64,000 nucleotides of DNA from a bacterium (lineage in GTDB: Bacteria > Patescibacteriota > Minisyncoccia > Phycocordibacterales > UBA5272). Of this stretch, positions 11,514 through 48,388 are shown piece by piece. Position numbers and translations under genes: made by a program. The stretch spans positions 64,910 through 128,909 of the forward strand of contig JAIXVU010000001.1 in NCBI GenBank assembly GCA_027482685.1, written 5' to 3'. The notes below the pieces were generated by a model that was not told the origin of the DNA, did not search any database, and saw only the letters and a program-made list of their open reading frames with translations. How positions within the stretch are numbered: position 1 is the stretch's first letter; the number at the start of each line of letters is the position of its first letter.

Positions 11514-11560
11514 AAGCTAATACTATTAGTATACAACTAATAACATTCATCTCTACTATG

Positions 11561-12286
11561 CTACTTTCCTTCAAAGGATACTTCCTTGAAATACCCTTGC
11601 AAAAAAAGTCCTTTTGCAATGTCTGCAGGTTTATTCCTATAGAGTACTAGATAGGTGGCTGGTAGCTCTTCTGCGACTTTTAGAACTCTATGGATATAAC
11701 TTACTGAGGTATCTTTCTCTGCATACATCATATGATGAGTATGTGCTACTGTATAGGCGAGGTCGTTTTCTACATCATCGTACTCCCTTGCATAAAGTCT
11801 AGTAATACTGTGATCGGTTGTAGCTAAAGTAAATGTTTCATCATCAAGGTATGGTGTAATAGTTGTGATGTTAGACTTTTGAAATATAGAAAGTAATGTA
11901 AGAAACTCTTTGTCAGAAAGAGTGTTCTCTAGTATGAAGAAGATTCGTATGTTGTAATCATAGAGCTTTTGAAATAGATGCGACATAACAATTTCATGAT
12001 ATCTAAATATCATTTCACTATCATCATCACTTTCATCTAGCGCGTGAAGGTAGAGCTCATTTATTCCAACTAGTACATCTTGTTTAAGGACAGCCTTATC
12101 AATATGAGTAGTTGCAAAGTACTCATCTATCTCGTCAGTGTGTGATGTTAGATATGTTTCTATTACCTGATCTTTTTCTTCATCTGTAATTTCTAGTAGG
12201 TTCAGTTTTGCTATTTGATCTTTGTATGTATAGAAGTGATTGATACACACAAGGAAGATATTAGGATTTGTATGATCTGATTGCAT
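11561..12286 (-). CDS. Hypothetical acidic cytoplasmic protein
   Basis: A 241-aa ORF with good coding appearance and no recognisable motif. Confidence 0.45.
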   Translation of the reverse strand: MQSDHTNPNIFLVCINHFYTYKDQIAKLNLLEITDEEKDQVIETYLTSHTDEIDEYFATTHIDKAVLKQDVLVGINELYLHALDESDDDSEMIFRYHEIVMSHLFQKLYDYNIRIFFILENTLSDKEFLTLLSIFQKSNITTITPYLDDETFTLATTDHSITRLYAREYDDVENDLAYTVAHTHHMMYAEKDTSVSYIHRVLKVAEELPATYLVLYRNKPADIAKGLFLQGYFKEVSFEGK

Positions 12287-12331
12287 GTGTACGTAGTATA
12301 CTATGCACTATTTTGTTAGATAGGTTTTGTT

Positions 12332-13258
12332 CTACTTTTCTTTATAGAGGTCTTGGTTGAATCCTCCTACCCCCACGTGCTCCATCTGACCATCATCATA
12401 GATAATGTGTTCGTATGGCATACAGTGGATACACCCCCCTGCCTTTGTATCATCATTATATGTTCCTTTTGGACAGGCAAATGTTTGTTCACCTTCACGC
12501 TTAGCTTGTACCCGCATTTCTTTTACTTGTAATGCGACATCAAATACAGCATTAAATGCTTCGTCTTTATTTGGTAGTGTAACTTCTACCATCTTGTCAC
12601 TCTCTAGATACCAGTAACTTGCTTTTGTTACAGTTCGACCTTGAAGAGCATTACAGAGAAGGAGATAGATCGGAAGCTGTAGCGATCCATCCCTCTCCTC
12701 ATGCTTTCCGGTTTTGAAATCTACAATATGGAGTGAGTCAGTATCTGGCAGATATTCTATCCAGTCAACAAGGCCGTTGAGAATGATGTTGTGATCTTCG
12801 CTTAGATAAAAGTTCGGTGCCATCGTCTCACGCTTGAGCTTGATGCATTTGTTCGGTAAGAATCGTGGATTCTTGATAACATTGTTGATCATCTCTTTGC
12901 CACGCATTTTGAATTGTTCTTCTTCATCTAATGATGAGAAGCCACCGATAGGACCAGAGACTTTGAGCCACGCTTCTTCAAAGCGTGCACGCAAGTCTCT
13001 GTCCATACGCTCGTGTGATGGGTAGTTAGCAAGATCTTCCAAGACTTCATGGGCCGCAATACCAAGCGACATATGTGGAGATATGATAGATATTTTCCTC
13101 CCGTTTTTATTTTTATAGACATTGTGCAGGTAGTAGAGTCGCGGACATTTGAGAAAGTCTCCCATAGATGAATGCGACACCCACACAGCTGAGTACTTAT
13201 CAGGCATAGTAAGTAGAGTATAGCAAAAACCTCTACATACTATGAACAATAGCCACAT
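12332..13258 (-). CDS. PD-(D/E)XK nuclease with a C-terminal Cys cluster (Cas4 / AddB-nuclease-domain-like); the likely start is internal (MPDKYS...)
   Basis: The RecB-family motif IVDFKTGKHEE and the Cys set FACPKG...GGCIHC (an Fe-S ligand pattern as in AddB/Cas4) are present. The same DFKTGK motif occurs in the neighbouring helicase-nuclease. Confidence 0.7.
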   Translation of the reverse strand: MWLLFIVCRGFCYTLLTMPDKYSAVWVSHSSMGDFLKCPRLYYLHNVYKNKNGRKISIISPHMSLGIAAHEVLEDLANYPSHERMDRDLRARFEEAWLKVSGPIGGFSSLDEEEQFKMRGKEMINNVIKNPRFLPNKCIKLKRETMAPNFYLSEDHNIILNGLVDWIEYLPDTDSLHIVDFKTGKHEERDGSLQLPIYLLLCNALQGRTVTKASYWYLESDKMVEVTLPNKDEAFNAVFDVALQVKEMRVQAKREGEQTFACPKGTYNDDTKAGGCIHCMPYEHIIYDDGQMEHVGVGGFNQDLYKEK

Positions 13259-32453: not shown

Positions 32454-32648
32454 TATCGCGCAAGTAAAATTTTTGTGGTAGAATTGTGGACAAGTTATTA
32501 AGGTAGTTTCTAGTTAAAAGTTTCAAGTTTTTAGTGAAAATACATACGCTATTTAGATAGCTTATAGTATCCACTTCTTTAATTCTTGAAAAGAATTCTC
32601 CGTATTTGTACCAACTAGAAACTAACAACAAATAACTAGCAACTAATT

Positions 32649-32720
32649 TTGGGTATCGTCTAACGGTAGGACATCAGCTAGCGGAGTTTACGGAGCGATA
32701 AAATAATGCGGTCCTGAGTA
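32649..32720 (+). pseudogene. Degenerate tRNA-Gln-like copy: the 5' half (acceptor/D-arm/anticodon-stem) plus a 32-nt insertion at the anticodon loop, with no T-arm or 3' acceptor
   Basis: TTGGGTATCGTCTAACGGTAGGACATCAG matches 27 of 29 positions of the real tRNA-Gln downstream. GGTCCTGAGTA resumes after the insertion. Confidence 0.45.
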
Positions 32721-32820
32721 CGAAGGACAATAAAGATTTGAAACGTACTTGTATGAATTAAAGTATTTTTGTAATTATGTATTTCACTCATAACTAATTA
32801 CTAAAAACTACTAACTATCT

Positions 32821-32862
32821 TTGGGTATCGTCTAATGGTAGGACATCAGCAAAGCGTAACAA
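32821..32862 (+). pseudogene. Second degenerate tRNA-Gln-like 5'-half copy with a 34-nt insertion at the same position
   Basis: TTGGGTATCGTCTAATGGTAGGACATCAG, then an insertion, then GGTACTGAGCAGG. The insertion is related to the one in copy 1 (both end in ..AATAA(T/A)GC). Confidence 0.45.
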
Positions 32863-32937
32863 CGTGAAGCGGTGGAATAAAGCGGTACTGAGCAGGACCA
32901 GAACAAATCTAAACTGCTCACAGAAGTTAAAAAATAT

Positions 32938-33008
32938 TGGGGTATCGTCTAATGGTAGGACATCAGGTTTTGGTCCTGAGTATCGAGGTTCGAGTCCTTG
33001 TACCCCAG
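32938..33008 (+). tRNA. tRNA-Gln (anticodon TTG)
   Basis: A manual cloverleaf gives acceptor TGGGGTA/TACCCCA, D-arm GTCT..GGAC, anticodon stem TCAGG/CCTGA with loop TTTTGGT, T-arm CGAGG-TTCGAGT-CCTTG and discriminator G. CC follows but is not counted. Confidence 0.8.
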
Positions 33009-33029
33009 CCAACTCGTGCGGAGTTCTGA

Positions 33030-33048
33030 CGCTCGGAGAGCGTCGAAA
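33030..33048 (+). repeat. Left copy of the exact 19-bp direct repeat CGCTCGGAGAGCGTCGAAA (contains the hairpin GACGCTC-GGA-GAGCGTC); putative island boundary
   Basis: It is identical to 48283..48301 and lies 22 nt 3' of tRNA-Gln. Confidence 0.6.
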
Positions 33049-33213
33049 CGTATGAGAGCTCTATACAGTTAATGCATAGCTACTGAGTGTAGCCAGCCAA
33101 ATCTAAAAAGTACCCCAAAAGGGTACTTTTTAGATTTTCCCATTATTACACTTCTTGCACTAAACTAATGACATTAGAGTTAAATTCAATGTTAAAACCT
33201 TCTGCGAGTTTGC

Positions 33214-33600
33214 ATGCAAAATTATGATAGAATAAATAATATGTCAGTAAAAAAAATACCTACAAAAAAGAAAAAAGTGGTAAATGTCTTATTTATTGTT
33301 TCAAAAAGTGGAAGTAATCCTCCACGAATAGACTTTTATGATAAAGGTAAATCTGTTCCAAAAGACAAAATTAAAGTAGTATTCAGAAACTCAAATACTG
33401 GACGTTTTGTTACTGAAAAGTATTCTCACACTCCCCCTATAGATAAAGACCACCCGAGAACTCATCATGTAAATAGAGACTCAAGATCTGGTGCGTTTAT
33501 AACAACAAAATCAGAATCAAGACATCCTTCAACCACCATTACTGAACGCATCTCAAAGGACTCTCCTATACATTTTAGAAAAGATAGCTCTAAAAAATAA
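33214..33600 (+). CDS. Hypothetical basic protein (128 aa), translationally coupled to the RusA-like gene
   Basis: The ORF's stop overlaps the ATG of the next gene (TAATGG). Confidence 0.4.
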   Translation: MQNYDRINNMSVKKIPTKKKKVVNVLFIVSKSGSNPPRIDFYDKGKSVPKDKIKVVFRNSNTGRFVTEKYSHTPPIDKDHPRTHHVNRDSRSGAFITTKSESRHPSTTITERISKDSPIHFRKDSSKK

Positions 33601-34088: not shown

Positions 34089-34558
34089 AAAATAATCACC
34101 CTCCTTCCTAGGGTGATTATTTTGTTATTGTCTAACGAGTACTAATTACTTAGTGTCGCCGTGACCTGTTTTCGGGATGCGTTCTACCGTAGTTGTATTC
34201 GGTCTTCGCTGTGCTTCTTTAACTGGAATAAAATGTCCAGTCTTAGAATCTCTCCCGAGAGGAAATGTCTTAGCCATATAGGTTATTAACATATTCGGTT
34301 GATAAATGGTCACTTAATATGTTAGGCTGGGATTACAACATCTTAACTTTACATGCTTAAGCACTGTGAATAAACGACCGGATTTCTGGAAGGAATCCTA
34401 ATCACATAACCTAAGGAACATTGTTTTAGAACAAATGTTCCTATATCTCTACCGTATCAAACTATTTTAATATTGTATAGTGTTATTTTAAACAATTAGA
34501 CAACTTTTTTTATAACTGTCTATATTAATCAAATTGTTGTAGTATTAGGTCATTTAAA

Positions 34559-35758
34559 ATGACAGATTTTACAATAAAAATTAAACGAGGTGGCATAAAA
34601 ATCGACAAACGAGTCTTTCTTTCTCTGTTAGACCTTTCCCCTATAAAAGACTACACAGATTATATTAAAGCTGTAGAGTCAAATGAGATTACTGTAAGTG
34701 ATTTAAAAATACTTGCTCAACGAGCAGATGTTCCATACCCATTATTTTTTGCACCAAAAGAAAAAGTTGACGCTCAACTTAAAGATACCCGAAAAAATCT
34801 ATTTGAAAAACTACCAACCAAGTCTGAAATGCAACTTGCTCTTCGCGGAGAAGCTAGTGTCGCTGATATAGAAATAATAGTGAAAGACATAGGAAGAAAA
34901 CAGGAGTTCTTAAAAAGAAGAGTACTCCCAGCAAGTGGTGACAACCCTTATATAGGATCAATTTCTAAGTTAATTAAGAAAGGTTTACCAAAAAAAGAAA
35001 TAGCTGAGCAAGTTAGATCTTATTTTGGAATCAATCTAGTAGAAATGCGGAAATTATCTAAAGATGATGTTCTTAGTTACATATGTAAAAAAGCTGAAGA
35101 AAAAGAAATCTTCATATCCATGAGTTCTTACAACTACATGCCTCAAAATCTGGATTCAAACCTTGGATTAAGTGGATTGTGTGTTAAAGATAAAAAAGTT
35201 CCTTACATTTTTGTAAACACTAGAGATGGCGATGATAAACCAAAGATATTAGAAACTTCAGGTAGACAAATACTTACAGTCATATCCATGCTTGTGTGCA
35301 TAGGAATAAATAAATTTCTATTAAGCACAAAAACAGGTAAATCCTCAAATACTGACTATAAAAGAATATACTCTATTGCTTCAGAAATTCTAATTCCTAC
35401 CAGCGAACTTAATGTAATAAAAATAAATAGTCTTTCTGATCTAACTAGTTGGGCACGTGTACTTAAAGTAACTCCAAGTATGCTTTTAATCTGTCTTGTA
35501 AATGCAGGTAAAATATCGAGAAAATTAGCTAACTCTTATCTTGAAAACCTGAGAGACGCTATAAAAGAAGTCCAACCAAAACGTAGGCAAGCTTTACCAA
35601 TTAATGGGTACAAAAAATACAACGGTGAAAGATTTTCAAAAGAAATAATTAGTGCATATAAAAATAACAAGATAACCGAAGGAGAAACAAAAAATCTATT
35701 ATTTAGAAAAGGAAAAATGGATAATAATTTATTCCAAGAGTATCTCTCAAAATACTAA
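34559..35758 (+). CDS. Hypothetical 399-aa protein, the upstream partner of the PIN gene. It has a possible HTH-like segment (LTSWARVLKVTPSML) and no recognised family
   Basis: The ORF is separated from the PIN gene by only 2 nt. Confidence 0.5.
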   Translation: MTDFTIKIKRGGIKIDKRVFLSLLDLSPIKDYTDYIKAVESNEITVSDLKILAQRADVPYPLFFAPKEKVDAQLKDTRKNLFEKLPTKSEMQLALRGEASVADIEIIVKDIGRKQEFLKRRVLPASGDNPYIGSISKLIKKGLPKKEIAEQVRSYFGINLVEMRKLSKDDVLSYICKKAEEKEIFISMSSYNYMPQNLDSNLGLSGLCVKDKKVPYIFVNTRDGDDKPKILETSGRQILTVISMLVCIGINKFLLSTKTGKSSNTDYKRIYSIASEILIPTSELNVIKINSLSDLTSWARVLKVTPSMLLICLVNAGKISRKLANSYLENLRDAIKEVQPKRRQALPINGYKKYNGERFSKEIISAYKNNKITEGETKNLLFRKGKMDNNLFQEYLSKY

Positions 35759-35760
35759 TT

Positions 35761-36159
35761 ATGAAATACTTATTAGACACAAACTCTCTATCAAAAAATA
35801 TCATTAACAAAGCCTCAAAAAGAAGTGATGTGTTTATCATTCGAGATGTTTTAGATGAGTACGTTTATTCACCAGAAGAAGAAACAAAATTTAAAAGTAC
35901 AGGTATTGATGTGATAGATCTTGAACAAAAACATTTTGAAAAATTAATAGAGGTCATGAAAAAACATGGTGATAATTTTTCTTTAATAAGGCTCTACACA
36001 GGAAAAGGCACAGCTGATGTTTTAATGTTGGCTTATATACTGGCTGAAACTGAAGTACAAGACACTCTTTTCCCTGAAGAATATACAATAGTCACCCAAG
36101 ACGGAGAACTTATCTCTGTATCAAAAGAATACGGAATAAATTGTATAAATCAATTTTAA
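35761..36159 (+). CDS. PIN-domain protein (VapC-like putative ribonuclease)
   Basis: The N-terminus MKYLLDTNSL carries the PIN first acidic residue, further D/E positions (DVLDEY, TQDGE) follow, and the size is 132 aa. Confidence 0.6.
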   Translation: MKYLLDTNSLSKNIINKASKRSDVFIIRDVLDEYVYSPEEETKFKSTGIDVIDLEQKHFEKLIEVMKKHGDNFSLIRLYTGKGTADVLMLAYILAETEVQDTLFPEEYTIVTQDGELISVSKEYGINCINQF

Positions 36160-36170
36160 TAACCTTAATT

Positions 36171-38492
36171 TTATACTTTTGCGTACAGTTTCTCTTGGAA
36201 TTTGAAGAAAATTGAACGAATCAAATCAATATCACCAAGTACATCTTTTGCATCCTCAAGTGACTGATATTTGTTTGTGAGCAATATAGGTAATTTCTCT
36301 TGGTCTAATTCTTCTACACCTGTTTCGATATACTTACTTAATACGAACTCAATAAACTCTTTTTGTTTATCATTAAGAGATTCAAAAATAGTTTCCTGAG
36401 ATGTTTCCACTCTTATATCTCTTGGTATTGGTTTAATATCACTATTAAATACATATTCCAACACATCAAAAAGATCACTATTCTCAGCATCAATCAATTT
36501 CTGTAATGTAGTTAATTCGTCTTTTCCATATCCTGCTTCGTCTAGTTTTTCTAGTAAACTTTTTCTAGTTATTGGATTACTCCAAATTTCTCGTAATTCT
36601 TCTTCACTTGTAAAGAATTTAGGTAATGTCCCAAACAAGTTTTGTAAAAACTCTTCCACAGAAATAGGTTTACCGTCTGCACCCCAAAATGAAGTTGCAA
36701 TCATGTGCTGTATTTCACGCTCTTTCCCATCTCGTAACTTAATCTTAAGTTTCTTATTCGGTTCAGTTGGTGGTTCTGGTGGAAAAGGTGGTTCACCCTC
36801 TACTCCTTTTGGTGGTTTAGGTTCCGTAGGTTCGTCATCTACTGGACTGATTGGTTCACCATCCCACTCAGGATCTGCAAAATGATGATAGGCATCTACA
36901 AAGTCATAAATAGTGAAGAACTCCTTACCGTCAAATAAACGTGTACCACGCCCCACAATTTGCTTAAACTCAATCATAGAGTTCACTGGTCGCATTAGAA
37001 CAATATTACGAATATTTCTAGCATCTACTCCAGTTGAAAGTTTCTGTGAAGTGGTGAGTATGGTCGGTATAGTTTTTTCGTTATCTTGGAACTCTCTCAA
37101 GAACTGTTCTCCTATTTCTCCGTCGTTAGCAGTAACACGCACACAATAATTTGGATCAGTGCTTTTCTTGTACTGATTAATCAAATCTCGAACAGCAGCC
37201 GCATGATCTTGAGTAGCACAGAAAACAATAGCTTTTTCATTTTGATCAGCTTCATCCATAAATACTTTCACACGCTTTTCCTCTCTCGCTTTAATTTCGA
37301 TTATCTTATTAAAATCAGGTTCGGTATAAAGTTTTCCTTCCTCGATTTCCCCTTCGATGATTTGGTCATCACTTGTATAAATATAATCGTCTAATGTTGT
37401 CTTAATACGCTTAACCTTAAAAGGAGTAAGGAAACCATCATTTATGCCTTCTTTTAGAGAATAAATATATACTGGCTCACCAAAGTATTTATACGTATCT
37501 ACATTGTCCTTACGTTTTGGTGTGGCTGTTAAACCTAATTGCACAGCAGGAGAAAAATATTCCAAGATTCCTCTCCAGTTTCCTTCGTCGTTTGCACCAC
37601 CACGATGACATTCGTCTATAATAATAAAATCAAAGTAATCAGGTGAGTATTCTCCGAAGTATGGGGCAGGATTACCATCTACATCTTTACCACTCATAAA
37701 GGTTTGAAAGATAGTAAAGAATATAGAGCCATTAGTAGGTACACTTCCTTTTTTACTTATCTCTTTTGGATTGATACGTACAAGAGAGTCTTCTGGAAAT
37801 GAAGAGAATGAGTTATATGCTTGGTCAGCTAGTATGTTTCTATCTGCTAAAAATAGAATACGAGGACGACGAGAACCATCACGCTTTAAGTTCCATCTTG
37901 TCTGAAAAAGTTTCCATGCAATCTGAAAAGCAATAGCTGTTTTACCTGTACCAGTGGCTAATGTTAGTAAGATACGATCCTTATTATTTGCAACAGATTC
38001 AAGAACATTTTTTACTGCTATTTCTTGATAGTAACGTAATTGCCAAGATCCACTCTTATCTTCAAATGGAACAGAACTAAACTTTTCCCTCCATTCATTT
38101 TGAACTGCAAAAGTTTTATTCCAAAGTTCGTCAGGAGAAAGATACTCAGAAACTAAACCCTCAATACCTGTTTTCATACAGATACTGTATATTTCTTTTC
38201 CATTTGTGGAATAGGTTGTTTCTATGTTTAATTTCTCTGCGTACTGCTTGGCTTGTGCAACACCTTCACCAACCCCTATGTTTGCACTCTTTGCCTCAAC
38301 CACAGCCAATTTTATGCCTTTGTAGACCAATACATAATCAGCAGTAAGTAACTTTCCTCTTATACCTCCAGTTTGAATTTTACCAGCAGTAATATTGTAT
38401 TCACGGAGTATTTTAGATCCTTCAATAACACCCCAACCACAATCTTTTAGCTTTGGATCAATTAGCTCTGCCCTTGTTTCAGATTCGTTCAT
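36171..38492 (-). CDS. hsdR: Type I restriction enzyme R subunit (HsdR), compact form
   Basis: The N-terminal HsdR nuclease domain (AVVEAKS), the SF2 motifs LATGTGKT and IIIDECHRG, and a position at the end of the hsdM-hsdS operon all fit HsdR. Confidence 0.8.
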   Translation of the reverse strand: MNESETRAELIDPKLKDCGWGVIEGSKILREYNITAGKIQTGGIRGKLLTADYVLVYKGIKLAVVEAKSANIGVGEGVAQAKQYAEKLNIETTYSTNGKEIYSICMKTGIEGLVSEYLSPDELWNKTFAVQNEWREKFSSVPFEDKSGSWQLRYYQEIAVKNVLESVANNKDRILLTLATGTGKTAIAFQIAWKLFQTRWNLKRDGSRRPRILFLADRNILADQAYNSFSSFPEDSLVRINPKEISKKGSVPTNGSIFFTIFQTFMSGKDVDGNPAPYFGEYSPDYFDFIIIDECHRGGANDEGNWRGILEYFSPAVQLGLTATPKRKDNVDTYKYFGEPVYIYSLKEGINDGFLTPFKVKRIKTTLDDYIYTSDDQIIEGEIEEGKLYTEPDFNKIIEIKAREEKRVKVFMDEADQNEKAIVFCATQDHAAAVRDLINQYKKSTDPNYCVRVTANDGEIGEQFLREFQDNEKTIPTILTTSQKLSTGVDARNIRNIVLMRPVNSMIEFKQIVGRGTRLFDGKEFFTIYDFVDAYHHFADPEWDGEPISPVDDEPTEPKPPKGVEGEPPFPPEPPTEPNKKLKIKLRDGKEREIQHMIATSFWGADGKPISVEEFLQNLFGTLPKFFTSEEELREIWSNPITRKSLLEKLDEAGYGKDELTTLQKLIDAENSDLFDVLEYVFNSDIKPIPRDIRVETSQETIFESLNDKQKEFIEFVLSKYIETGVEELDQEKLPILLTNKYQSLEDAKDVLGDIDLIRSIFFKFQEKLYAKV

Positions 38493-38513
38493 AATCTTGA
38501 CATTATAGCACTT

Positions 38514-39680
38514 TTATAGTTCGCCGTTAAATGCTTTTTGAAGAATACTTTTCTTAAGCTCTTCTAAGTCATTTAATTTTTGTTCGTAGATTGATTCAAG
38601 TCTTTTTGTTTCATTTGAAAGTGATTCGAGTTTTTTAACAATAAGTTCTTGCTCCTTTATTGATTTTGGAAAGCTTATTCTAATAAGTTTTAAATTTTTA
38701 AGAATAATTCTTCTTATTGCAACTCCTGTTTTCATCCCCACGGCCTCTTGTAAAAATTCAGGATTTTTCAAAACATATTTCAAAAAAGACGAATCAATGA
38801 TTTTTCTTTTAGGTCTTATGATTGCCAACGAAGACAACACTACAAAATCTTTTTCAAAATCAACAAGGGACACTTTTCCCACAGTCCCATCTTTTGAAAA
38901 AAGAAGATCCCCTTGATTTGGTTTACATCCATTTTTAAGTAAGGATTCATAATCTTTTTTATTTATAAACTTACACCTTTCAAAATTAATTATATCGTTA
39001 TCAATATCTCTTACTGTTATATACGGATATTCATCTTCATTAGATGAATCTGGGGAAAAATGACTTCCGTCCGTAATTTGTTCACAAACATCCATAAGCT
39101 CAACATTTTCCCAATCGCCTCCTTTATTTGTAAACACACTCTGTAAATAACTCTCAAAAAGCTCCTTAGCATTTTTTAGATTTTGTTCAGCATTATCTTT
39201 TACTTTAGATATGTTAGTAAAAGATTCCTCTAAAATAGATACAATGCGTTGTTGTTCTTTAAGTGGAGGAAGTACGATTGGATATTCTTTAATCATCGGC
39301 ACAGTTAATTGTGGTATTGATGACCCACTATGGGTAAAATCAATACCACTAATTACAAACTTAAGAAAAGTTAAACTAACAACATCTGTTTTAGGTATTA
39401 TAACTATGAGTCGCACCACTGGATAAAAAGGTTCCTGTCTTATTTCAGAGTAACCAATTGTACCTCTTGCTGAAATAGTTATGCTTGGTTTTGTTACTCT
39501 TGCGACATTTGTGTAACCATATAATCCCTTATTTTTCTCACCATTTGAAAAGATGGGGATATTATAAAAATCTGTTTTAACTTTAAATGTGTTATTTTTG
39601 TCTACATCACCACCAGCAAAAAGCTCTTCACAAACATCTCCTAACTTTTTTATTTCCCAGTTAGTTTTCATAATCGCCAT
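38514..39680 (-). CDS. hsdS: Type I restriction-modification specificity subunit (HsdS)
   Basis: Two target-recognition-domain halves are separated by the conserved coiled-coil repeats (LKEQQRIVSILE...; KEQELIVKKLESL). Confidence 0.75.
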   Translation of the reverse strand: MAIMKTNWEIKKLGDVCEELFAGGDVDKNNTFKVKTDFYNIPIFSNGEKNKGLYGYTNVARVTKPSITISARGTIGYSEIRQEPFYPVVRLIVIIPKTDVVSLTFLKFVISGIDFTHSGSSIPQLTVPMIKEYPIVLPPLKEQQRIVSILEESFTNISKVKDNAEQNLKNAKELFESYLQSVFTNKGGDWENVELMDVCEQITDGSHFSPDSSNEDEYPYITVRDIDNDIINFERCKFINKKDYESLLKNGCKPNQGDLLFSKDGTVGKVSLVDFEKDFVVLSSLAIIRPKRKIIDSSFLKYVLKNPEFLQEAVGMKTGVAIRRIILKNLKLIRISFPKSIKEQELIVKKLESLSNETKRLESIYEQKLNDLEELKKSILQKAFNGEL

Positions 39681-41106
39681 AGTTACTCTTTATATACTTT
39701 CTCTGCTTCACATATTCAATTAAAAGATTGTAAAACATCTCCTCTTCCTTGTCCTCAGCAACTTTAATAGAGTCACGACCGCTCTCGTCTTTAGTAATTA
39801 AGTACTTCCCCCAGTAAACATTAGAAGTTGTATTATCTGGTACCTTAATACCAAAAGACTTCAGCATGGTTACTGAGTATCTCCCGTAGGGCATTCTTTG
39901 GTCCATTTTTATAGTAGCGTTTTTTATAATTTCTAGCTTCCTTAAGAAAACATCAGTATTTGAAAAACTGTGTATAGTAACCTTTACCGCTATATCGAAT
40001 ATCTTTTGAAAACTATCCGCAAAATGGTCTTCATGATAACTACCTTTTTTTAACTCAAGTAGCTGAAATCTCGTTGCTTTTAGTAATGACCTCAAATTCA
40101 TAATTTCACTATTTATTGCTCTTGAAAAGATATGCCAGAGAAAAAGCTTAATGTACCCACTATTCCCAATAGAAGAACTTAAATTTGGTTCTTCATTCTT
40201 AATACTCATAGCAATTTGCTCAACTGTAGCGAGAATTGCTTTTTTATTATCAAAATAAAATGGACTAACAGTAAAAAACTTGTCCATGTACCCAGAGAAA
40301 TCTGTCTCTGCTCCATACTTATGGTGAAAAAAGTTTTTTAGGTTTGTGTAATCTGCAACAATAACTATTAAATCAAAACCAAATTTATTTTCATGCTCCT
40401 TTTCAAAGTAGGCGGATAATATATTTAATATCCTAAATACGTGCTCAGGGTCTATTCTGTCTAAGTCATCTAAAACAAGAATACTTTTTTTGGTATCTTT
40501 TTGAAGAGTGATTTTTTCTTTCAAGAGATGACTTAGAAAATCTGTTTCAGAAATGTTTTTTGCTTTAATCTGCTCAACATATTTTTCTACTAATGCTTTT
40601 TCTCCGCCTTTATATTCATGCTTAAATTCTTGAAATTCTTTATCTAATTCGAGTAAGTCCTTTAGTGGTCTACCGAGTTTAGTAAGAGAGGATGAAATTG
40701 GGTCTGGAATTGCATCTCCATAGTTTTCTGCAATAGAAAGAGTTGACTGTAAGACAGAATTTACAGTAAATCTATTTCTTGCCCAAGAATAAAAAAGAAG
40801 TGCTGATTCTTTTATTCCATCAACTTTATTACCTTGTAAAATATCCTTATTCTTTTTTAGTAACTCCACAAGAATGTCATATTTTATAAGCTCTAAAATA
40901 TCCTCATTACTGTTAATCTGATAGTTAATAGGATATAAATGAAACACATCATACTTATCTTTTCTGGATTCAAAGAATTCATTTAAGAAAAAAGTCTTTC
41001 CAATGCCGAAAGGTCCAGAGAAAAAAACTCTTGAATTATTTTCCATAACTAAAAAATCTTCAAAAACTTTTTCTACTGTATCAATTGGTATTTTAATATC
41101 TGCCAT
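39661..41106 (-). CDS. KAP-family P-loop NTPase embedded in the Type I R-M operon
   Basis: Walker A is SGPFGIGKT. The KAP-type Walker B is ILVLDDLDRIDPEHVF. The gene overlaps hsdS by 20 nt and starts 6 nt after hsdM. Confidence 0.65.
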   Translation of the reverse strand: MADIKIPIDTVEKVFEDFLVMENNSRVFFSGPFGIGKTFFLNEFFESRKDKYDVFHLYPINYQINSNEDILELIKYDILVELLKKNKDILQGNKVDGIKESALLFYSWARNRFTVNSVLQSTLSIAENYGDAIPDPISSSLTKLGRPLKDLLELDKEFQEFKHEYKGGEKALVEKYVEQIKAKNISETDFLSHLLKEKITLQKDTKKSILVLDDLDRIDPEHVFRILNILSAYFEKEHENKFGFDLIVIVADYTNLKNFFHHKYGAETDFSGYMDKFFTVSPFYFDNKKAILATVEQIAMSIKNEEPNLSSSIGNSGYIKLFLWHIFSRAINSEIMNLRSLLKATRFQLLELKKGSYHEDHFADSFQKIFDIAVKVTIHSFSNTDVFLRKLEIIKNATIKMDQRMPYGRYSVTMLKSFGIKVPDNTTSNVYWGKYLITKDESGRDSIKVAEDKEEEMFYNLLIEYVKQRKYIKSNYGDYEN

Positions 41107-41111
41107 AGAAA

Positions 41112-42578
41112 CTAAATAATCTTTTTAATTAAATTAAGGATATCTTCACTCTCTTTATCTAAAGCTTTCATTTCTTTCAAAATATCTTCAGGTGTTCGTA
41201 GTACTGTTTCCTCTTTTTTATTTGGGTTCTTAGCACTCAAATCAAAAGTTTTTTGGTCTATATCTTTCACGTTTACACTCCATGAGTTTTCACTCTCAGC
41301 TTTTGTTTTTTGAAGCTTAATAAAATCTTCTAAATCTTTTTCACTAAGTGAGTTTGTTTTACCTAAATTTCTATCTAAGTTAAGGTGGTAGAACCAAACC
41401 TTCTTTGTGGATGATCCTTTTTCAAAAAATAACACAACTGTTTTTACTCCTGCTCCAGTAAAAGTTCCAGCAGGTAAATCAAGTACAGTATGCAGGTTGC
41501 AATTTTCTAACAATAACTTTCTTAAGCTAACAGTTGCATTATCTGTATTACTTAGGAATGTATTTTTAATAACGACGCCACCTTTACCTCCAGCTTTTAA
41601 TATCTTGATAAAATGCTGTAAGAAAAGAGATGCTGTTTCTCCTGTTTTAATTGGAAAATTTTGTTGTACTTCTGCTCGTTCTTTTCCGCCAAATGGAGGG
41701 TTTGCTAATACGATATTATAACGGTCTTTCTCTTGTATGTCTGCAAGATTTTCAGCAAGGGTATTGGTATGGATAATATTCGGAGCTTCTATACCATGTA
41801 AAATCATATTCATCGTACCGATGATATAAGCAAGAGATTTCTTTTCCTTTCCATAGAAAGTTTTCTTTTGTAAAATTTCTACATCTTTTGTTGTGAGGTT
41901 TTTACTCTTCTTTAAATAATCAAAAGCTTCACATAAAAACCCAGCACTACCTACTGCACCATCATAAATAGTGTCACCAATTTTTGGAGCAACTACTTTA
42001 ACAATAGTAGTAATGAGTGGTCGTGGAGTATAGTACTCACCACCATTACGCCCAGCGTTCCCCATGTTCTGTATTTTAGATTCATACAAATGACTCATCT
42101 CATGCTTTTCAGCGTGGGTACGGAAACGAAGTTCGTCTATACGATTAATAACTTCACGTAAGTTGTAACCACTATGAATTCTATTTTTTAATTCAGAAAA
42201 AATCTCACCAATCTTATATTCAATAGTATCTGGACTTTCAGCACTTGTTTTAAATTTCTTAAGATAAGGGAAGAGCTTATGATCAACAAAATCTTTCAGA
42301 TCATCTCCTGTTAATTCTTTATGATGATCAAGTTTCCCTGTCTTATCCTTTGGGGTAGCCCACGTAGTCCAACTATATTCAGGAGATATAATATTAGTAT
42401 ATTTTTTTCCTGCAAGTTCAGCCGCTGTTTTCTTGTCTTTCTCTAAATCGTCTAGATACTTCAAAAACAAGACCCATGAGGTTTGTTCAACATAATCAAG
42501 CTCACTTCCGCATCCTGCATCTTTGTGTAAGATGTCGTCTATATTCTTAAAAGTTTGTTCAAACATAAATTTACTCAT
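41112..42578 (-). CDS. hsdM: Type I restriction-modification N6-adenine methyltransferase subunit (HsdM)
   Basis: The HsdM N-terminal domain, AdoMet motif I (DGAVGSAGFL) and the catalytic VLANPPFGG are present. Confidence 0.85.
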   Translation of the reverse strand: MSKFMFEQTFKNIDDILHKDAGCGSELDYVEQTSWVLFLKYLDDLEKDKKTAAELAGKKYTNIISPEYSWTTWATPKDKTGKLDHHKELTGDDLKDFVDHKLFPYLKKFKTSAESPDTIEYKIGEIFSELKNRIHSGYNLREVINRIDELRFRTHAEKHEMSHLYESKIQNMGNAGRNGGEYYTPRPLITTIVKVVAPKIGDTIYDGAVGSAGFLCEAFDYLKKSKNLTTKDVEILQKKTFYGKEKKSLAYIIGTMNMILHGIEAPNIIHTNTLAENLADIQEKDRYNIVLANPPFGGKERAEVQQNFPIKTGETASLFLQHFIKILKAGGKGGVVIKNTFLSNTDNATVSLRKLLLENCNLHTVLDLPAGTFTGAGVKTVVLFFEKGSSTKKVWFYHLNLDRNLGKTNSLSEKDLEDFIKLQKTKAESENSWSVNVKDIDQKTFDLSAKNPNKKEETVLRTPEDILKEMKALDKESEDILNLIKKII

Positions 42579-42591
42579 AATTATATCACTT

Positions 42592-44004
42592 TTAACTAGC
42601 TCGGACTAACTCAATTTCGCTTATATAAATCTTTTTATCTGATAGCAAAATTTTGCTTTTCAAACACCCTAACAACTCTCGTTTCTCTATATCCTTTCCA
42701 TCTCTCAAAATATACTTCGCATAATTTCGTATATCTACATCACCTACACTAGTACTATCCTTAACCCCTAAAACACCTATCTGAAAGCGTTTGAATCTAT
42801 TAACCTCATCTTTTATCTTCTCTTTCATTCCTATCTCGTCTAGGTCAATTTTATCGAACACCTCTTCTAACTGTTTAATAAGATCATCTTCATTAAGGTA
42901 TCCACTTTTACAATGTCTATCCCTCACCTTATTACACCCATAATAGACATATCTATGAATATTCCCATTCTTCTGTTTCTTTAACTTTTCATCGGCACAT
43001 ACTCCTGAACCACATAAACCACAGGTCATAAGTTTAGTGAAAGCAAATTCTTTACTTCCGAATTCTGTTTTTGTAATCTGTCGTGTTATCTGTACTTGGA
43101 CAAGATCAAAGAGTTCTTTTGTGATTAATGGCTCATGTGATCCTTTATACCAGTTACCACTCTTTTTAGGATATTCAAATTCTCCGTAATAGAAAGTATT
43201 TCTTAAGAGGATATGTATCGTACTTAACGTAAGCCCTTTATTACTACTTACCGATCTAAAATTAAGATCAAACTTTAACCAATGATACACTTTTCTACCA
43301 CTCCATTTTTCGTAAGCAACTTTCTCAAACATTTGTTTCATTATATGACCTCTCTCTGGATCAATATATGTCTGACATTTTCTATCTATTCTTTTTTCTT
43401 TAAGATAACCAGTAGGAGCAGGTGCTGGCCATAAACCCATTTCTACTCTTGTCTTTAAACCTCTCTTAACATTAATACTTTTATTATCATTTTCTAACTT
43501 CGCTTGAGAACAAAGAATCATTAATAAAAACTTTTCATTTGGGGAATTAGAAAATGTTTGTCCATAAGTTCTAATTTGAAGAAGTAACTTTTGATCCATT
43601 AAATCAACAAGCGACCCTAGGTCGCCTGCATTTCTACTTAATCTATCTGGTGCCCATGTCAGCACTCCGTTATATCTACCAATTCGTATATCTTCTAAAA
43701 TTTCTTTAAACACTGGTCGCTGTCCTGATTCTTTCGCTGAATGAGATTCTCGTCTAATATCAATAATTTCTAAACCTTCTCTTTCTGCTAACGAAAGCAT
43801 TTCTTTAATTTGTGAATCAATAGAAAGAATTTGTCTTTCTTCTGATTCAGTACTTTTTCTACTATATAAAACATATTTGATTTTTGTTGTTGGAATAACA
43901 GCCATATTACCTATTAGTCCAAATGGTGCTTGTTGTTGCATATATATATTAATGACAGAACCATAATCCCTGCATAGTCTATGCAGAACTAAAAAAGGCG
44001 ACAT
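42592..44004 (-). CDS. Large serine recombinase (resolvase/invertase catalytic domain + recombinase domain + zinc ribbon); the likely start is the internal MAVIPTT...
   Basis: The catalytic Ser context is YVLYSRKSTESEE. The Cys-rich ribbon CGLCGSG...C is present. The size is about 440-470 aa. Confidence 0.8.
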   Translation of the reverse strand: MSPFLVLHRLCRDYGSVINIYMQQQAPFGLIGNMAVIPTTKIKYVLYSRKSTESEERQILSIDSQIKEMLSLAEREGLEIIDIRRESHSAKESGQRPVFKEILEDIRIGRYNGVLTWAPDRLSRNAGDLGSLVDLMDQKLLLQIRTYGQTFSNSPNEKFLLMILCSQAKLENDNKSINVKRGLKTRVEMGLWPAPAPTGYLKEKRIDRKCQTYIDPERGHIMKQMFEKVAYEKWSGRKVYHWLKFDLNFRSVSSNKGLTLSTIHILLRNTFYYGEFEYPKKSGNWYKGSHEPLITKELFDLVQVQITRQITKTEFGSKEFAFTKLMTCGLCGSGVCADEKLKKQKNGNIHRYVYYGCNKVRDRHCKSGYLNEDDLIKQLEEVFDKIDLDEIGMKEKIKDEVNRFKRFQIGVLGVKDSTSVGDVDIRNYAKYILRDGKDIEKRELLGCLKSKILLSDKKIYISEIELVRAS

Positions 44005-44209
44005 TGTGAGAGATTTATTTGTCTACAAAAATGCCTTAGCAAAAGACCTTTTATGCGATATAATCAATAGATTAATACAAGAGTATTAAGAGAAAAAATT
44101 TGCAGTAGCCTAACCCTTTAAGTAATTAAAGGTATGGTGAAAAAGTCCTATCAGATCAAAAACCCCATCATGTGGGCTTTGCTCTGATAGGCCATATCTG
44201 GAAACGGAT

Positions 44210-45040
44210 ATGAAGGTCGCAAGACCTTACTCACGTGGTGGGATTTTTGCTTCCCAACGAGAGATTACTAAGTCCTATCAGACATATATGAACCAATCAG
44301 CATCTCCTTTTGGAGATAATTTTAGATATTTAGTAGAAGAACGAATCAAAAACTTTTGGGGATATGGTAACTTTAAAAGTGATATATGGTTTGTCGGAAT
44401 GGAAGAAGGTCACAGTGGAGATATTGAAAGTTTAGTTAAAAGATTAGAAGCTACGAAAGACAAAGAGACTCTGGATATCTATGATGACATGAAGCATGAT
44501 GTTGCTCATATGAAGTGGTTTGAAGAAGGAGCGAAAACTCAAGCAACGTATCGTCGACTAATTTATATATTACTCTATCTTAAAAACAAGGTAGAGCCGA
44601 CATTAGAGGAGATAAGACAATTTCAAATAAAAGAATTTGGTAGAAAAACATCAAATCATACAGCTCTTGAATTAATGCCACTTCCTGCAAAATCTATTAA
44701 TGCAAAAGATTGGGTATATAAGGAAGCGAATATAGAAGGATTGAATACTCGAAAAGAATATTTAGCAACATATAGACCAAGACGTATAGCACGACTTCGT
44801 GAATTAATTTCTATACATAAACCAAAGATTGTTATTTTCTACTCAAGGGTATATTTACCAGAATGGAGAGAAACGATACCTGTACCTTTAGAAGAAATTA
44901 AGGATACTAAACTTCATATAGCAAAAGACCACAACACGTTATATGTTGTAGTCCCTCACTCAACCTCTTACGGCATATCACTTAGTGATTGGAAGAAGAT
45001 TGCAGAAACATTAGTTAGTCACCATAGTCATCATCATTAA
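44210..45040 (+). CDS. Hypothetical protein (the likely start is internal). It has weak uracil-DNA-glycosylase-superfamily-like motifs (VGMEEGHSG; VVPHSTSYG), which are speculative
   Basis: ORF only; the motif resemblance is by eye. Confidence 0.35.
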   Translation: MKVARPYSRGGIFASQREITKSYQTYMNQSASPFGDNFRYLVEERIKNFWGYGNFKSDIWFVGMEEGHSGDIESLVKRLEATKDKETLDIYDDMKHDVAHMKWFEEGAKTQATYRRLIYILLYLKNKVEPTLEEIRQFQIKEFGRKTSNHTALELMPLPAKSINAKDWVYKEANIEGLNTRKEYLATYRPRRIARLRELISIHKPKIVIFYSRVYLPEWRETIPVPLEEIKDTKLHIAKDHNTLYVVVPHSTSYGISLSDWKKIAETLVSHHSHHH

Positions 45041-45422
45041 TATCGCCAACTACATTTGACGGCATATTTAATGGATCAACGGTATCAATAGTAATTGAAG
45101 TAATTGGTACAAACGGTTTCTTCCAAAAATCTTTTGGTCGTGGTCGCATGTACTCTTTTTTTTGGTTATCAAGATAATACTGGATAGCTCTCAAACTTCC
45201 ATTATTGATATGAGAGATAAGTTTACTCTCTGCAAGATCTATAATAGAGTCAGTCCCACACAAAAGAGCAAGATCTACACTTTCTTGAAACTCTGGATCA
45301 TCTTTACACCAACGATAGATTGTATTCCTCGCTAATCCTACTTTCTCGCAGGCGAGAGAAATATTGGGAACGGTGTTAAGTTGTTCAAGAAAAGCTTTTA
45401 CCTTTTTATCCTTTTTCGCCAT
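45015..45422 (-). CDS. HTH-domain protein, possibly a terminase-small-subunit-like or regulatory protein
   Basis: The N-terminal HTH is NISLACEKVGLARNTIYRWCKDD. The gene overlaps the ParB-MTase gene by 17 nt. Confidence 0.45.
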   Translation of the reverse strand: MAKKDKKVKAFLEQLNTVPNISLACEKVGLARNTIYRWCKDDPEFQESVDLALLCGTDSIIDLAESKLISHINNGSLRAIQYYLDNQKKEYMRPRPKDFWKKPFVPITSITIDTVDPLNMPSNVVGDINDDDYGD

Positions 45423-46692
45423 TTCGGATAACCTTTGCCTTTTTGCCTGTTAATGCTTCGTAACGTCGTATTGTTAAGTCACAAAATATTGGTTCAATCT
45501 CTACAGCATATACTCTACGCTTAAGATTTAGACCAGCCATAATTGTACTTCCTGAACCAGAGAAACTATCGAGAATGATGTCTGTCATTTTTGTACAACG
45601 GCGGATTGCCTTTTCGTATACTTCAGGTGGCTTCATTGTACTGTGTTCGTATTCGTTGCCAGAGAGACGCTTTTCCATCCATACAGTTAGATAATCGTGT
45701 GCTTGTTGTAACAAATCGTTACCTGTTGTCGTGTCGTTATTCATGACTTCATTTAGATCATTCACACCCTTTACGATATATGGCTTACCACGAGTGCCGT
45801 AGGTACAAGGTTCGTAACACTTGTTGAAAGCGACAGATGGGACGGGGTTCTGGGAATTTTTAAGCCATAAACATACTCGACGATTAATAATGCCAAATTC
45901 ACGATACAAAGTTTGTATGAGCCATATATACGCTTGATCGGACCAATAAAATATATGAGCATTTTCCTTGGTTACAGAAAGTGCAGCGACCATGCTCTTT
46001 CTTAAGAAGTCTGAGTATTCCTTGTCTGTCTTGTTGTCATCGACGGTACCACCGTAATTCTGCTTGCCACCAATTCCACTGTTATAGTTTACAGATATAT
46101 TGTAAATTGGATCTGAGATTATCATAGAAGCACGTTCGTCACCAAAGAGCTTTTGAAGTGTCTCTGGAAGAGTGGAATCTCCACATATCAATCGGCAGTC
46201 CCCAAGTTCTATGATATCGCCAACTTGGGTTGTTGCTTTCTTAAGCTTAATCTTCTCAAGTTCGACCTCTGGAGAAAACTTTCCTTGATCGAGTGTTCTG
46301 TTCCAAATATCGTCGAGTTGTTGTTGGTCAAAGCCGATATCAAGAAGTAGATCAAAATCTAATCGTTGGAGCTTGTCGATATCAAACTCACCAGTATTTT
46401 TGCTGAGTCGGACATTCAATTCCTTTTCTTTTTCAAGATCTGAAATATTTACGAAGACAACTGGAACTTCTACCATCTTGAGTTCCTTTGCTACTTCAAG
46501 ACGGAAGTCTCCTCCGATAACGGTATTCTCTCGACCTTTAGCACTGTTACAGATTATCGGATCCACGAATCCGAATCGCTTGATACTCTCTTTAAGCTGA
46601 TTTGCTTGTTCCGTTGTATGTTTGCGAGGATTGTACTCAGATGGATTAAGATTGGTAATCGGGAGATAAACGACTTTAATGTTGTTAGTCAT
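45406..46692 (-). CDS. ParB-like nuclease domain fused to a beta-class N6-adenine/N4-cytosine DNA methyltransferase
   Basis: The N-terminal ParB/Srx motif (PSEYNPRK; VIGGDFRL), MTase motif IV (SDPIYNI) and motif I (DSFSGSGST) are present. Confidence 0.75.
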   Translation of the reverse strand: MTNNIKVVYLPITNLNPSEYNPRKHTTEQANQLKESIKRFGFVDPIICNSAKGRENTVIGGDFRLEVAKELKMVEVPVVFVNISDLEKEKELNVRLSKNTGEFDIDKLQRLDFDLLLDIGFDQQQLDDIWNRTLDQGKFSPEVELEKIKLKKATTQVGDIIELGDCRLICGDSTLPETLQKLFGDERASMIISDPIYNISVNYNSGIGGKQNYGGTVDDNKTDKEYSDFLRKSMVAALSVTKENAHIFYWSDQAYIWLIQTLYREFGIINRRVCLWLKNSQNPVPSVAFNKCYEPCTYGTRGKPYIVKGVNDLNEVMNNDTTTGNDLLQQAHDYLTVWMEKRLSGNEYEHSTMKPPEVYEKAIRRCTKMTDIILDSFSGSGSTIMAGLNLKRRVYAVEIEPIFCDLTIRRYEALTGKKAKVIRNGEKG

Positions 46693-46696
46693 AAAA

Positions 46697-47113
46697 TTAT
46701 TTGTTTAGATCTACTCCACCTAGCTGTAAGAACATTTTTATGTGTCCAATTTTACCATCGCCAGTTGCTTGCTCATAAAGTGAATTAATGACTTCAGGAA
46801 TTCTATCCTTAATCCATCCAGAGATGTTCTTTTGAACAAAGAACGCAAACTTTGGGTGATGCTTCCAGTCTGTTAAGGTGTCTTCGCAAACTCCGACTGA
46901 TGAAGCAAATTCTTTCTGAGTTTTCATCTCGCGAAAATCTCGTGGAGTTGAGTACCACTCAGTGAATTTTAGGAATTCAGGCACATTGTAAATATCTGAG
47001 ATAACTATCGAAATATCGGAGTAAATCGGATTTGTTTCTGTAACCTTTGCACTGTCTGTATGAATTTCTTTCATATGTTTATTAGAATTAACTTTGAATA
47101 AACAAAAGCTCAC
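46697..47113 (-). CDS. Hypothetical protein with a possible HTH (KEFASSVGVCEDTLTDW)
   Basis: ORF only, in tandem with the methyltransferase gene. Confidence 0.4.
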   Translation of the reverse strand: MSFCLFKVNSNKHMKEIHTDSAKVTETNPIYSDISIVISDIYNVPEFLKFTEWYSTPRDFREMKTQKEFASSVGVCEDTLTDWKHHPKFAFFVQKNISGWIKDRIPEVINSLYEQATGDGKIGHIKMFLQLGGVDLNK

Positions 47114-47279
47114 GCACCTTGGGTAAGGTTGCGCGAGCTTTTAGTTAAAAAATCACTCGAGATATTGCTTTTGTATACTCATTATATCACACTAATTTTT
47201 CATGCAAGTTTCTTATTTTCAAAGGGTTTTTTAGAATTTTCGCATTAAAAATTCTGTTTGAGAATAGTTTTAAAAAGAT

Positions 47280-47903
47280 CTATACCTGTTCCTTTTCTTG
47301 TTCGTATCTTCGTCTTCTTTCGTCGAGAGTTTCTTCTTCAAATTCCCAATAAACTGGACCTTGTGCAGGATAAGCAACACCTAACGCCATTTGAGCTGCT
47401 TTAGATAGACTCATTGTTACATCATTAAATAGAACATTGGAACCTTCTGTTAAAGTACACGTAACTTCTGGATTTCTTGTGAAAGTAAATACACTGCCAA
47501 CAGGTAATTCATAAGCTTCAAAATCGTATCTCTTTGTGTACCGTCTTGCTTTGATAAGCGCTTTCTTGTCCTCCTCATATTCAACGATATCTCCTTGTGG
47601 AGTAACTTCTCTAACTTCAGCTAATTTAAGTGCAGCAACAACTCGTTCAGGTGTTTCAGTAAAGAACTCTCTGTTCTCAGCAACTCTTGTTCTTCCAAAA
47701 GCTTCATGTAATTTTCTTTCAACGAAATCCATATCATTTACTTCCGAAGCATAGAAAACTTCAAAAGGAAGAGGTACACCTGAAGCTCTAGAAAGCTCCT
47801 TTACTCTTCTATCGAGGTCATTAGTCTTTCCAATCTTTATGTACCCAGGCATTGCCACGTTAGTTAAAATATAGATGATATTCATATTCAGTAATACTAC
47901 CAT
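47280..47903 (-). CDS. GIY-YIG nuclease-family protein (T5orf172/DUF4357-like)
   Basis: NIIYILTN...GYIKIGKTNDLDRRVKEL is the GIY-YIG core. The likely start is at MNIIYIL. Confidence 0.6.
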   Translation of the reverse strand: MVVLLNMNIIYILTNVAMPGYIKIGKTNDLDRRVKELSRASGVPLPFEVFYASEVNDMDFVERKLHEAFGRTRVAENREFFTETPERVVAALKLAEVREVTPQGDIVEYEEDKKALIKARRYTKRYDFEAYELPVGSVFTFTRNPEVTCTLTEGSNVLFNDVTMSLSKAAQMALGVAYPAQGPVYWEFEEETLDERRRRYEQEKEQV

Positions 47904-48282: not shown

Positions 48283-48301
48283 CGCTCGGAGAGCGTCGAA
48301 A
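48283..48301 (+). repeat. Right copy of the 19-bp direct repeat CGCTCGGAGAGCGTCGAAA
   Basis: Identical to 33030..33048. Confidence 0.6.
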
Positions 48302-48388
48302 AGTTAAGTTAATAATTAACAAAAAAGCATTACAGGTCTTGACCGTACTTTTTCTGAGCACGTGCCTCTCAGCTGGTATACTTAAATA

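Follow-up and report, generated by a model that had tools for sequence, protein, structure and literature searches.

A mobile gene pair joining a putative ImmA/IrrE-type pseudo-protease to a PIN nuclease

COG2856-HTH proteins are often paired with PIN and RelE toxins (Makarova 2009, PMC2701414). One such arrangement, in which an HTH-DUF955 protein is encoded with DUF4411, has been proposed to be a three-component toxin-antitoxin (TA) system, and the PIN-associated DUF955 retains the HEXXH motif (Matelska 2017, PMC5499597). RmrA is the ImmA-type Zn-peptidase antitoxin of the RosmerTA anti-phage defence system; an rmrA deletion was not obtained by transformation, possibly due to toxicity (Millman 2022 preprint, bioRxiv 10.1101/2022.05.11.491447). 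The NetFlax analysis identified the ImmA domain as an antitoxin hub, with PIN-like toxins among its partners (PMC10440598). The IrrE-like fold of PrpR, which lacks HEXXH, serves to bind a ligand (PMC6765138). The COG2856/ImmA-type antitoxins (Rosmer and its relatives) form a large, promiscuous TA/defence hub, and their mechanism is still assumed to be proteolytic.

Here we compare with these systems a pair of genes, A and B, from a 64,000-nt stretch of DNA (the window). The first-pass annotation had proposed the pair as a candidate undescribed system. That proposal was not supported on comparison with the COG2856-HTH/PIN, HTH-DUF955 + DUF4411, RosmerTA, and NetFlax precedents.

The gene pair and its inheritance

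The two genes and the signals around them were located as follows.

34559..35758, + strand: gene A, 399 aa; catalytically dead XRE-HTH + ImmA/IrrE (Peptidase_M78/COG2856) homologue, putative antitoxin/sensor
35761..36159, + strand: gene B, 132 aa; PIN (VapC-fold) nuclease, shortened DUF4411 relative, putative toxin/effector
35756..35763, + strand: A-B junction, TAA-tt-ATG, 2-nt gap
34497-34526 (within 34491..34538), + strand: candidate promoter, TAGACA-18 nt-TATATT, with a flanking imperfect inverted repeat, AACAATTAGA / TCAAATTGTT
34089..34123, no strand assigned: bidirectional terminator-like hairpin with a 14-bp stem, between the RusA gene and the A-B unit

The two ORFs, their sizes, and the 2-nt gap are exactly as first annotated, and the description of two closely linked genes that form a unit, one of them encoding a PIN effector, was supported. 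The spacing at the junction suggests translational coupling. In related loci the stop codon of A and the start codon of B overlap by 4 nt (ATGA, GTGA, or TTGA; 14 loci) or are separated by a gap of +1 to +7 nt (10 others). The sigma-70 promoter and operator upstream of A match the consensus weakly. Promoter-like matches in the region numbered 8, compared to 13.4 in shuffled sequence, and thus showed no enrichment. As they were fewer than in the shuffles, we treat the upstream promoter/operator as a lead rather than a finding.

Scanned individually, A and B gave no meaningful match to Pfam, NCBIfam, or PADLOC (including its RmrA and RmrT models), and these empty single-sequence scans account for the earlier statement that A had no recognisable family. 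Since all three resources miss both genes, annotated genomes of Patescibacteria and Actinomycetota do not show the family. Homology searches recovered 129 homologues of A (~400 aa), several of which are labelled 'Zn-dependent peptidase ImmA (M78 family)' by JGI, and 43 homologues of B (~132 aa). Adjacent locus tags, among other clues, indicated that the same contigs carry homologues of both.

A genome scan for A returned 42 loci, 39 of which include DNA downstream of A. A homologue of B directly follows A in 37 of these 39, and the remaining two (L032 and L034) contain disrupted remnants of B. The hosts belong to Patescibacteria (Paceibacterota, Saccharibacteria), Bacteroidota (Chitinophagales), and many Actinomycetota (e.g. 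Nocardioides, Cellulomonas, Aeromicrobium, and Tessaracoccus), giving a patchy distribution over three phyla. Co-occurrence in other genomes, the check suggested at first reading, therefore found the pair kept as a unit across all three. Separately, a role for A as a housekeeping enzyme was ruled out by this patchy, mobile-element-linked distribution together with the constant PIN partner.

Pairwise identities of A and B were strongly correlated across 28 loci (r = 0.92), a value reached by none of 2000 Mantel permutations, and remained so inside each major branch (r 0.85-0.88). This correlated divergence indicates that the genes are co-inherited and that partners have not been swapped. Within 3 kb of the pair in the 42 loci, we found no third conserved gene that might encode, for example, a small repressor or antitoxin; the recurrent neighbours were limited to recombinases and a few genes of the elements. 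By tblastn, no homologue of A was present in 50,697 phage records, and a plasmid collection yielded only two, both distant and canonical.

The regulator-like protein A and the nuclease B

Comparison of profiles established the ancestry of A. The A family aligned with the canonical XRE-HTH/M78 family over A residues 44-383 (hhalign, 99.8 %, E 5e-29), and because of this match we regard A as homologous over its full length to the XRE-HTH/ImmA partners of DUF4411. M78 homology (PF06114, COG2856) and fold are both present in gene A. Structurally, A resembles CapP, PrpR, and IrrE; the Foldseek comparison proposed in the first-pass annotation returned the same three from the PDB, and the A family profile had no match among PDB sequences. 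The ORF described as lacking a recognisable family is thus a full-length XRE-HTH/ImmA-IrrE (Peptidase_M78, COG2856) homologue. Its order and size, which had seemed unusual, are ordinary for this class: a regulator of ~390-400 aa is normal, and the regulator or antitoxin gene usually precedes the PIN gene and overlaps or almost overlaps it.

Catalytically intact relatives were found at the edge of the scan. The three most distant of the 42 loci (L040-L042) encode HTH_3 + Peptidase_M78 proteins of ~390 aa with HEXXH, each followed by a DUF4411 gene (E 1e-36 to 1e-43). These regulators match PADLOC RmrA (E 1e-17 to 1e-22). The canonical HTH-M78 family comprised 2229 matches at E <= 1e-10. The A family is of moderate size, with 111 clusters (50 % identity) at E <= 1e-30 and 326 at E <= 1e-10; relaxing the threshold to E <= 1e-3 gives 1359, a number that takes in live relatives.

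Three segments of A are of note in the comparison with these relatives.

34688..34753, + strand: A codons 44-65 (ITVSDLKILAQRADVPYPLFFA); last two helices, the sole still-alignable part of the ancestral XRE-type HTH
35252..35266, + strand: E232-R236, within an insertion of ~9 residues directly before the former active-site helix; a gap in canonical relatives
35285..35299, + strand: former HEXXH site, S243-M244-L245-V246-C247; zinc-ligand/catalytic-Glu position in canonical ImmA/IrrE

Alignment with the L040-L042 relatives placed the canonical FTLVHELAHLW opposite LTVISMLVCIG of A, and hhalign agreed. We surveyed these columns in 232 members of the A clade. The set combines the 120 closest homologues with the 150 top-ranking representatives obtained when 1.84 billion cluster representatives were searched exhaustively by HMM. 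None had H, E, and H at the HEXXH columns. The catalytic Glu column contained Met (144 members) or Leu (86 members), the first-His column Ser, Ala, Leu, or Thr, and the second-His column Cys, Leu, or Ser. The replacement residues differ between the Patescibacteria/Bacteroidota and the Actinomycetota branches. In the 120 closest homologues, HEXXH was absent from the aligned site and turned up a single time over the full sequences, as an unrelated match at residue 361. The third metal ligand, E276 ('SEILIP', corresponding to the canonical E..LMP motif), was kept in 191 members.

Conservation elsewhere in A was high. Within the insertion, across the extended family, position 232 is Glu in 211 members (Asp in 9), 235 is Gly in 215, and 236 is Arg in 230 (Val in one other). 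Near-invariant positions of A include P59, R96, Q115, P195, S205, D211, P215, R236, E276, and P280. A near-invariant scaffold that lacks HEXXH implies purifying selection on a non-catalytic function, and we therefore describe A as a conserved pseudo-protease.

The N-terminus has diverged as well. HTH_3 spans residues 12-65 in the canonical relatives; the hhalign alignment begins only at A residue 44, opposite canonical residue 47. Within the alignable part, P59, Y60, P61, L62, F64, and A65 are invariant (VPYPLFFA motif). Residues 1-43 do not align to the canonical family and are predicted to form a beta-hairpin (3-16) and helices, unlike the first three XRE helices. HTH models did not match A of the window, and of 32 family members one matched HTH_19 (E 0.08). 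The HTH of A is thus undetectable and the classical DNA-binding module has probably been lost, although a degenerate HTH may remain. With both zinc-binding His residues and the catalytic Glu gone and no HTH detectable, A cannot work by cleaving a repressor.

Gene B adopts an alpha/beta/alpha PIN fold with structural resemblance to VapC, and the AF2 models of A and B are both confident. Its predicted active site maps to these codons.

35776..36102, + strand: B active-site span, holding four acidic codons
35776-35778, + strand: D6, invariant in 29 of 29 family members
35857-35859, + strand: E33, invariant in 29 of 29
36016-36018, + strand: D86, invariant in 29 of 29
36100-36102, + strand: D114, invariant in 29 of 29

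E96 is likewise invariant among these 29, and D6, E33, D86, and D114 are also retained in the Actinomycetota branch. Against Pfam, 18 of the 29 matched PIN_4 (best E 8.8e-5) and 11 matched PIN, with B of the window itself matching neither. Remote homology of B to DUF4411 was supported by hhalign (96.2 %, E 2e-9). The Pfam model of DUF4411 (PF14367) did not match B of the window and matched one of the 29 family members (E 0.012). B is also ~35 residues shorter, at 132 aa compared to 167-170 aa. Its family profile produced only noise against PDB sequences. Judged by sequence and fold, B has an intact site for metal binding and is predicted to act as an endoribonuclease of the VapC-like PIN type; its toxicity is assumed by analogy with the PIN family.

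Mobile setting and candidate functions

We consider it probable, if short of assured, that A-B is an autonomous mobile type II-like TA module of the COG2856(ImmA/IrrE)-PIN class, in which the pseudo-protease A neutralises the PIN effector B. The same class takes in the Rosmer (RmrTA) systems and the HTH-DUF955/DUF4411 operons. Neutralisation is proposed to occur by direct binding. A would be produced ahead of B from a shared, coupled transcript, and would bind B stoichiometrically, with its dead substrate cleft and/or the clade-specific insertion serving as the surface for binding or for sensing a trigger. Were A lost, titrated, or conformationally changed, B would be released, cut RNA, and bring the cell to arrest. 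Phage infection, element loss, or a stress ligand might be the trigger. The role could be abortive-infection defence or stabilisation of the carrier integrative element, and the data do not separate these.

A more specific proposal, which we advance tentatively, is that this clade is a mechanistically distinct offshoot of the ImmA/Rosmer-type systems. Here the dead cleft and the E232/G235/R236 insertion would hold the PIN toxin and/or trap a peptide or ligand derived from phage or stress, with release occurring by competitive binding instead of repressor proteolysis.

The surroundings of the pair bear on its role. The closest public match is a Candidatus Paceibacterota MAG, with 98 % protein identity and, starting at window position 33004, 96 % identity in DNA. 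The window places the pair in a low-GC block of roughly 15 kb beside tRNA-Gln, with these ends.

33030-33051 and 48283-48304: 22-nt direct repeat bounding the block that holds A-B, just after tRNA-Gln

No copy of the tRNA-Gln 3' end was found on the opposite side of the island. Within the block lie a RusA gene, A-B, a type I R-M operon interrupted by a KAP NTPase gene, a large serine recombinase, a LOOT RNA, a ParB-methylase, and a T5orf172 gene. The pair thus sits in a mobile, defence-type island, and its placement beside an R-M system was correctly recognised from the outset. The 98 %-identical element L047 shares with the window both the RusA-A-B block and the recombinase end, but where the window has the 6.4-kb type I R-M/KAP cassette, L047 has T5orf172, a DEAD helicase, and an MmeI-type enzyme. 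This different cassette beside B identifies the adjoining slot as a cargo hot spot. The A-B pair therefore rides on integrative elements, beside a slot where R-M cassettes are swapped.

In the 36 other loci, the commonest of the nearest flanking ORFs were serine recombinases (6) and tyrosine integrases (6), followed by methyltransferases, HsdS, ArdA, AbiH, DpnI, relaxase, and STAND/Schlafen-type proteins. Only a handful of 129 flanking ORFs gave defence matches, so enrichment beside defence genes is anecdotal. Among other contexts, L045 is prophage-like, L044 resembles a defence island, and L043 has no defence context.

Such a setting would also suit a regulatory/immunity module of the element itself, descended from ImmR/ImmA-integrase. 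In that case A-B would control excision, induction, or maintenance, and B would be a regulatory RNase for element transcripts. In its favour, A descends from proteases that act as anti-repressors in ICEs and phages (PMC5499597, PMC10440598), L004, L009, and L012 each have a large serine recombinase 63-108 nt away from the pair, and RusA-A-B with the recombinase forms the conserved frame around the swapped cargo in the window and L047, the former inside its repeat-bounded block beside tRNA-Gln. However, a dead protease with no detectable HTH leaves neither half of the ImmA/ImmR mechanism in place, and no conserved repressor gene lies nearby. Some copies of the pair are accompanied by tyrosine integrases or have flanks free of recombinases, and an intact PIN active site behind a partner gene is a hallmark of TA modules. 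We thus judge this explanation unlikely.

Less likely still is that A remains an enzyme, a protease or hydrolase with a non-canonical site (e.g. E276, C247, or E232/R236) that cleaves B or a host target to activate or inactivate it, as proposed for canonical COG2856-PIN three-component systems. The frequent retention of E276, the common Cys at the second-His position, and the new insertion with its conserved E232 and R236 are compatible with such a site. Yet both His ligands and the general-base Glu have been exchanged for non-ligand residues, and the replacements vary between members, so that no alternative site has become fixed. The PrpR fold, moreover, works without catalysis (PMC6765138). 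That A and B do nothing together, being chance neighbours or remnants in decay, as the failure of Pfam, NCBIfam, and PADLOC to recognise either protein directly might suggest, is effectively refuted by their adjacency over three phyla, co-divergence, conserved junctions, confident AF2 models, and dozens of invariant columns in both.

On the favoured TA reading, the A clade represents a natural knock-out of the protease site, spread over 111 clusters and three phyla. That the PIN partner, the coupling, and the scaffold were all kept once the protease site was gone argues that the scaffold can neutralise or regulate a toxin non-catalytically. The clade would accordingly offer a clean system for probing the non-catalytic surfaces of RmrA-like proteins. 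If the reading is correct, A is a pseudo-protease antitoxin/sensor, and within the limited searchable literature we found no description of an ImmA-type antitoxin clade lacking HEXXH.

Comparison with known systems

PrpR/RamB of M. tuberculosis is a metabolic regulator with a functional N-terminal HTH, a GAF-like domain, a 4Fe-4S cluster, and CoA binding. In four scans, neither a GAF domain nor a PrpR-type family was detected in A or its family members. PrpR/RamB also operates within a chromosomal regulon, whereas A-B is a mobile pair with a PIN gene. In CapP/CapH, ImmA/ImmR, and IrrE/DdrO, a catalytically active HEXXH protease cuts an XRE repressor that is a distinct protein. In contrast, A lacks the catalytic motif and is accompanied not by a repressor gene but by one for a nuclease.

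With VapBC, the pair shares a downstream VapC-fold PIN protein of ~130 aa with an acidic tetrad and a tightly coupled upstream partner. That partner, however, has 399 aa, is ImmA-derived, and contains no recognisable DNA-binding domain, whereas VapB is an RHH, AbrB, Phd, or HTH protein of 70-90 aa. The early view that so large a partner is not a VapB was therefore sound. No small ORF was conserved beside the pair across the 42 loci.

RosmerTA likewise consists of two genes, pairing an antitoxin of ~360-400 aa (HTH + ImmA-type Zn-peptidase) with a variable toxin, and the canonical sister clade of A matches PADLOC RmrA. The window A itself had no PADLOC match at E <= 0.1, and its Actinomycetota branch was marginal to RmrA (E 2e-3). 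Neither B nor DUF4411 matched any PADLOC model at E up to 0.1, and hence neither matched RmrT. Since the RmrT models match neither, the analogy with Rosmer extends only to the antitoxin. A further difference is that A is without the peptidase motif, and the A-B clade is not known to have a phage-defence phenotype.

The closest resemblance is to the HTH-DUF955 + DUF4411 operons. Both genes are homologous, the regulator precedes the PIN gene with equally tight spacing, and the regulators, of ~390-400 aa, share a full-length architecture past A residue 44. Indeed, the nearest live relatives found, L040-L042, are exactly such operons. They differ in retaining the HEXXH motif lost clade-wide in A, in having an XRE HTH core where A has a beta-hairpin region without detectable similarity, and in encoding a longer PIN protein than B, which falls under the Pfam threshold. 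Their mechanism, in which the protease cleaves its own HTH or a repressor, cannot apply to A. The A-B pair is thus of a kind already described, a COG2856/ImmA-type partner with a PIN toxin; what appears to be new is the loss of HEXXH across an entire clade, apparently along with the HTH.

Probable borders beside tRNA-Gln

A 22-nt direct repeat, CGCTCGGAGAGCGTCGAAA(C/A)GT, which holds a short palindrome, occurs in two copies at a spacing of 15,253 bp. The copies enclose a low-GC block that contains the A-B pair (the ImmA/IrrE-type pseudo-protease and PIN nuclease genes), the R-M operon and a large serine recombinase gene.

33030-33051: 22-nt repeat, first copy
42592-44004, minus strand: large serine recombinase gene
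48283-48304: 22-nt repeat, second copy

These repeats are likely the att sites of a ~15-kb integrated element beside tRNA-Gln. Identity between the window and a related MAG contig (L001) begins at 33004. The 33-nt 5'-half of tRNA-Gln is itself present as three direct copies (91-100% identical) within 32645-33011.

32645: tRNA-Gln 5'-half, first copy
32817: tRNA-Gln 5'-half, second copy
32934: tRNA-Gln 5'-half, third copy

Only the third copy extends into a complete tRNA-Gln(UUG) gene (32938-33011), and about 25 nt of upstream sequence are common to the first two. Recurrent integration or recombination events at the tRNA may have left the partial copies behind as scars, or they may be decayed tandem tRNA copies.

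Small ORFs and a structured RNA

Two small ORFs have a 34-residue motif in common, RDS(K/R)(T/S)G.FI..K...R.P.TT..ERI.K, and align with 47% identity (pairwise E 2e-8). The plus-strand ORF also weakly matches PADLOC PDC-S38 (E 1.2e-4), and counterparts of both are among the gene calls of a near-identical element from another sample (L047).

33214-33600, plus strand: small ORF with the motif
34146-34313, minus strand: small ORF with the motif
44107-44228, plus strand: LOOT RNA (Rfam RF03000)

The LOOT RNA match spans the full model length and reaches 93 bits (gathering threshold 46). It lies within the putative integrated element, with the serine recombinase gene on one side and ORF 44210-45040 on the other.

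A possible element backbone

Region 45015-47903 (minus strand) holds a ParB-methylase fusion gene flanked by two HTH_Tnp_1_2/terminase-small-like genes and one T5orf172 gene.

45406-46692, minus strand: ParB_N + N6_N4 DNA methylase fusion

The ParB-methylase and HTH pair was found again near the A-B pair in four other loci (L002, L003, L008 and L045), and this recurrence suggests a phage-like element backbone common to Patescibacteria loci. L045, which lies in a 753-kb metagenomic contig, additionally carries a diversity-generating retroelement signature (bAvd and a split RVT_1 reverse transcriptase, 11395-12860) 2 kb downstream of its A-B pair and adjoining a large serine recombinase.

Exchange of defence cargo

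The type I R-M operon is interrupted by a KAP-family NTPase gene (Pfam E 2e-13; PADLOC PDC-S20 E 9e-9), which is placed between hsdS and hsdM and shares 20 nt with the beginning of hsdS.

39661-41106, minus strand: KAP-family P-loop NTPase gene

The L047 element is 92-98% identical to that of the window, where 36231-42640 was compared with L047 3176-9064. Both the RusA-A-B flank (the RusA gene plus the A-B pair) and the recombinase-end flank are kept. In place of the type I R-M and KAP genes, L047 has T5orf172, a DEAD/ResIII helicase and an MmeI-type R-M enzyme. This replacement marks window 36231-42640 as a site where defence cargo is swapped.
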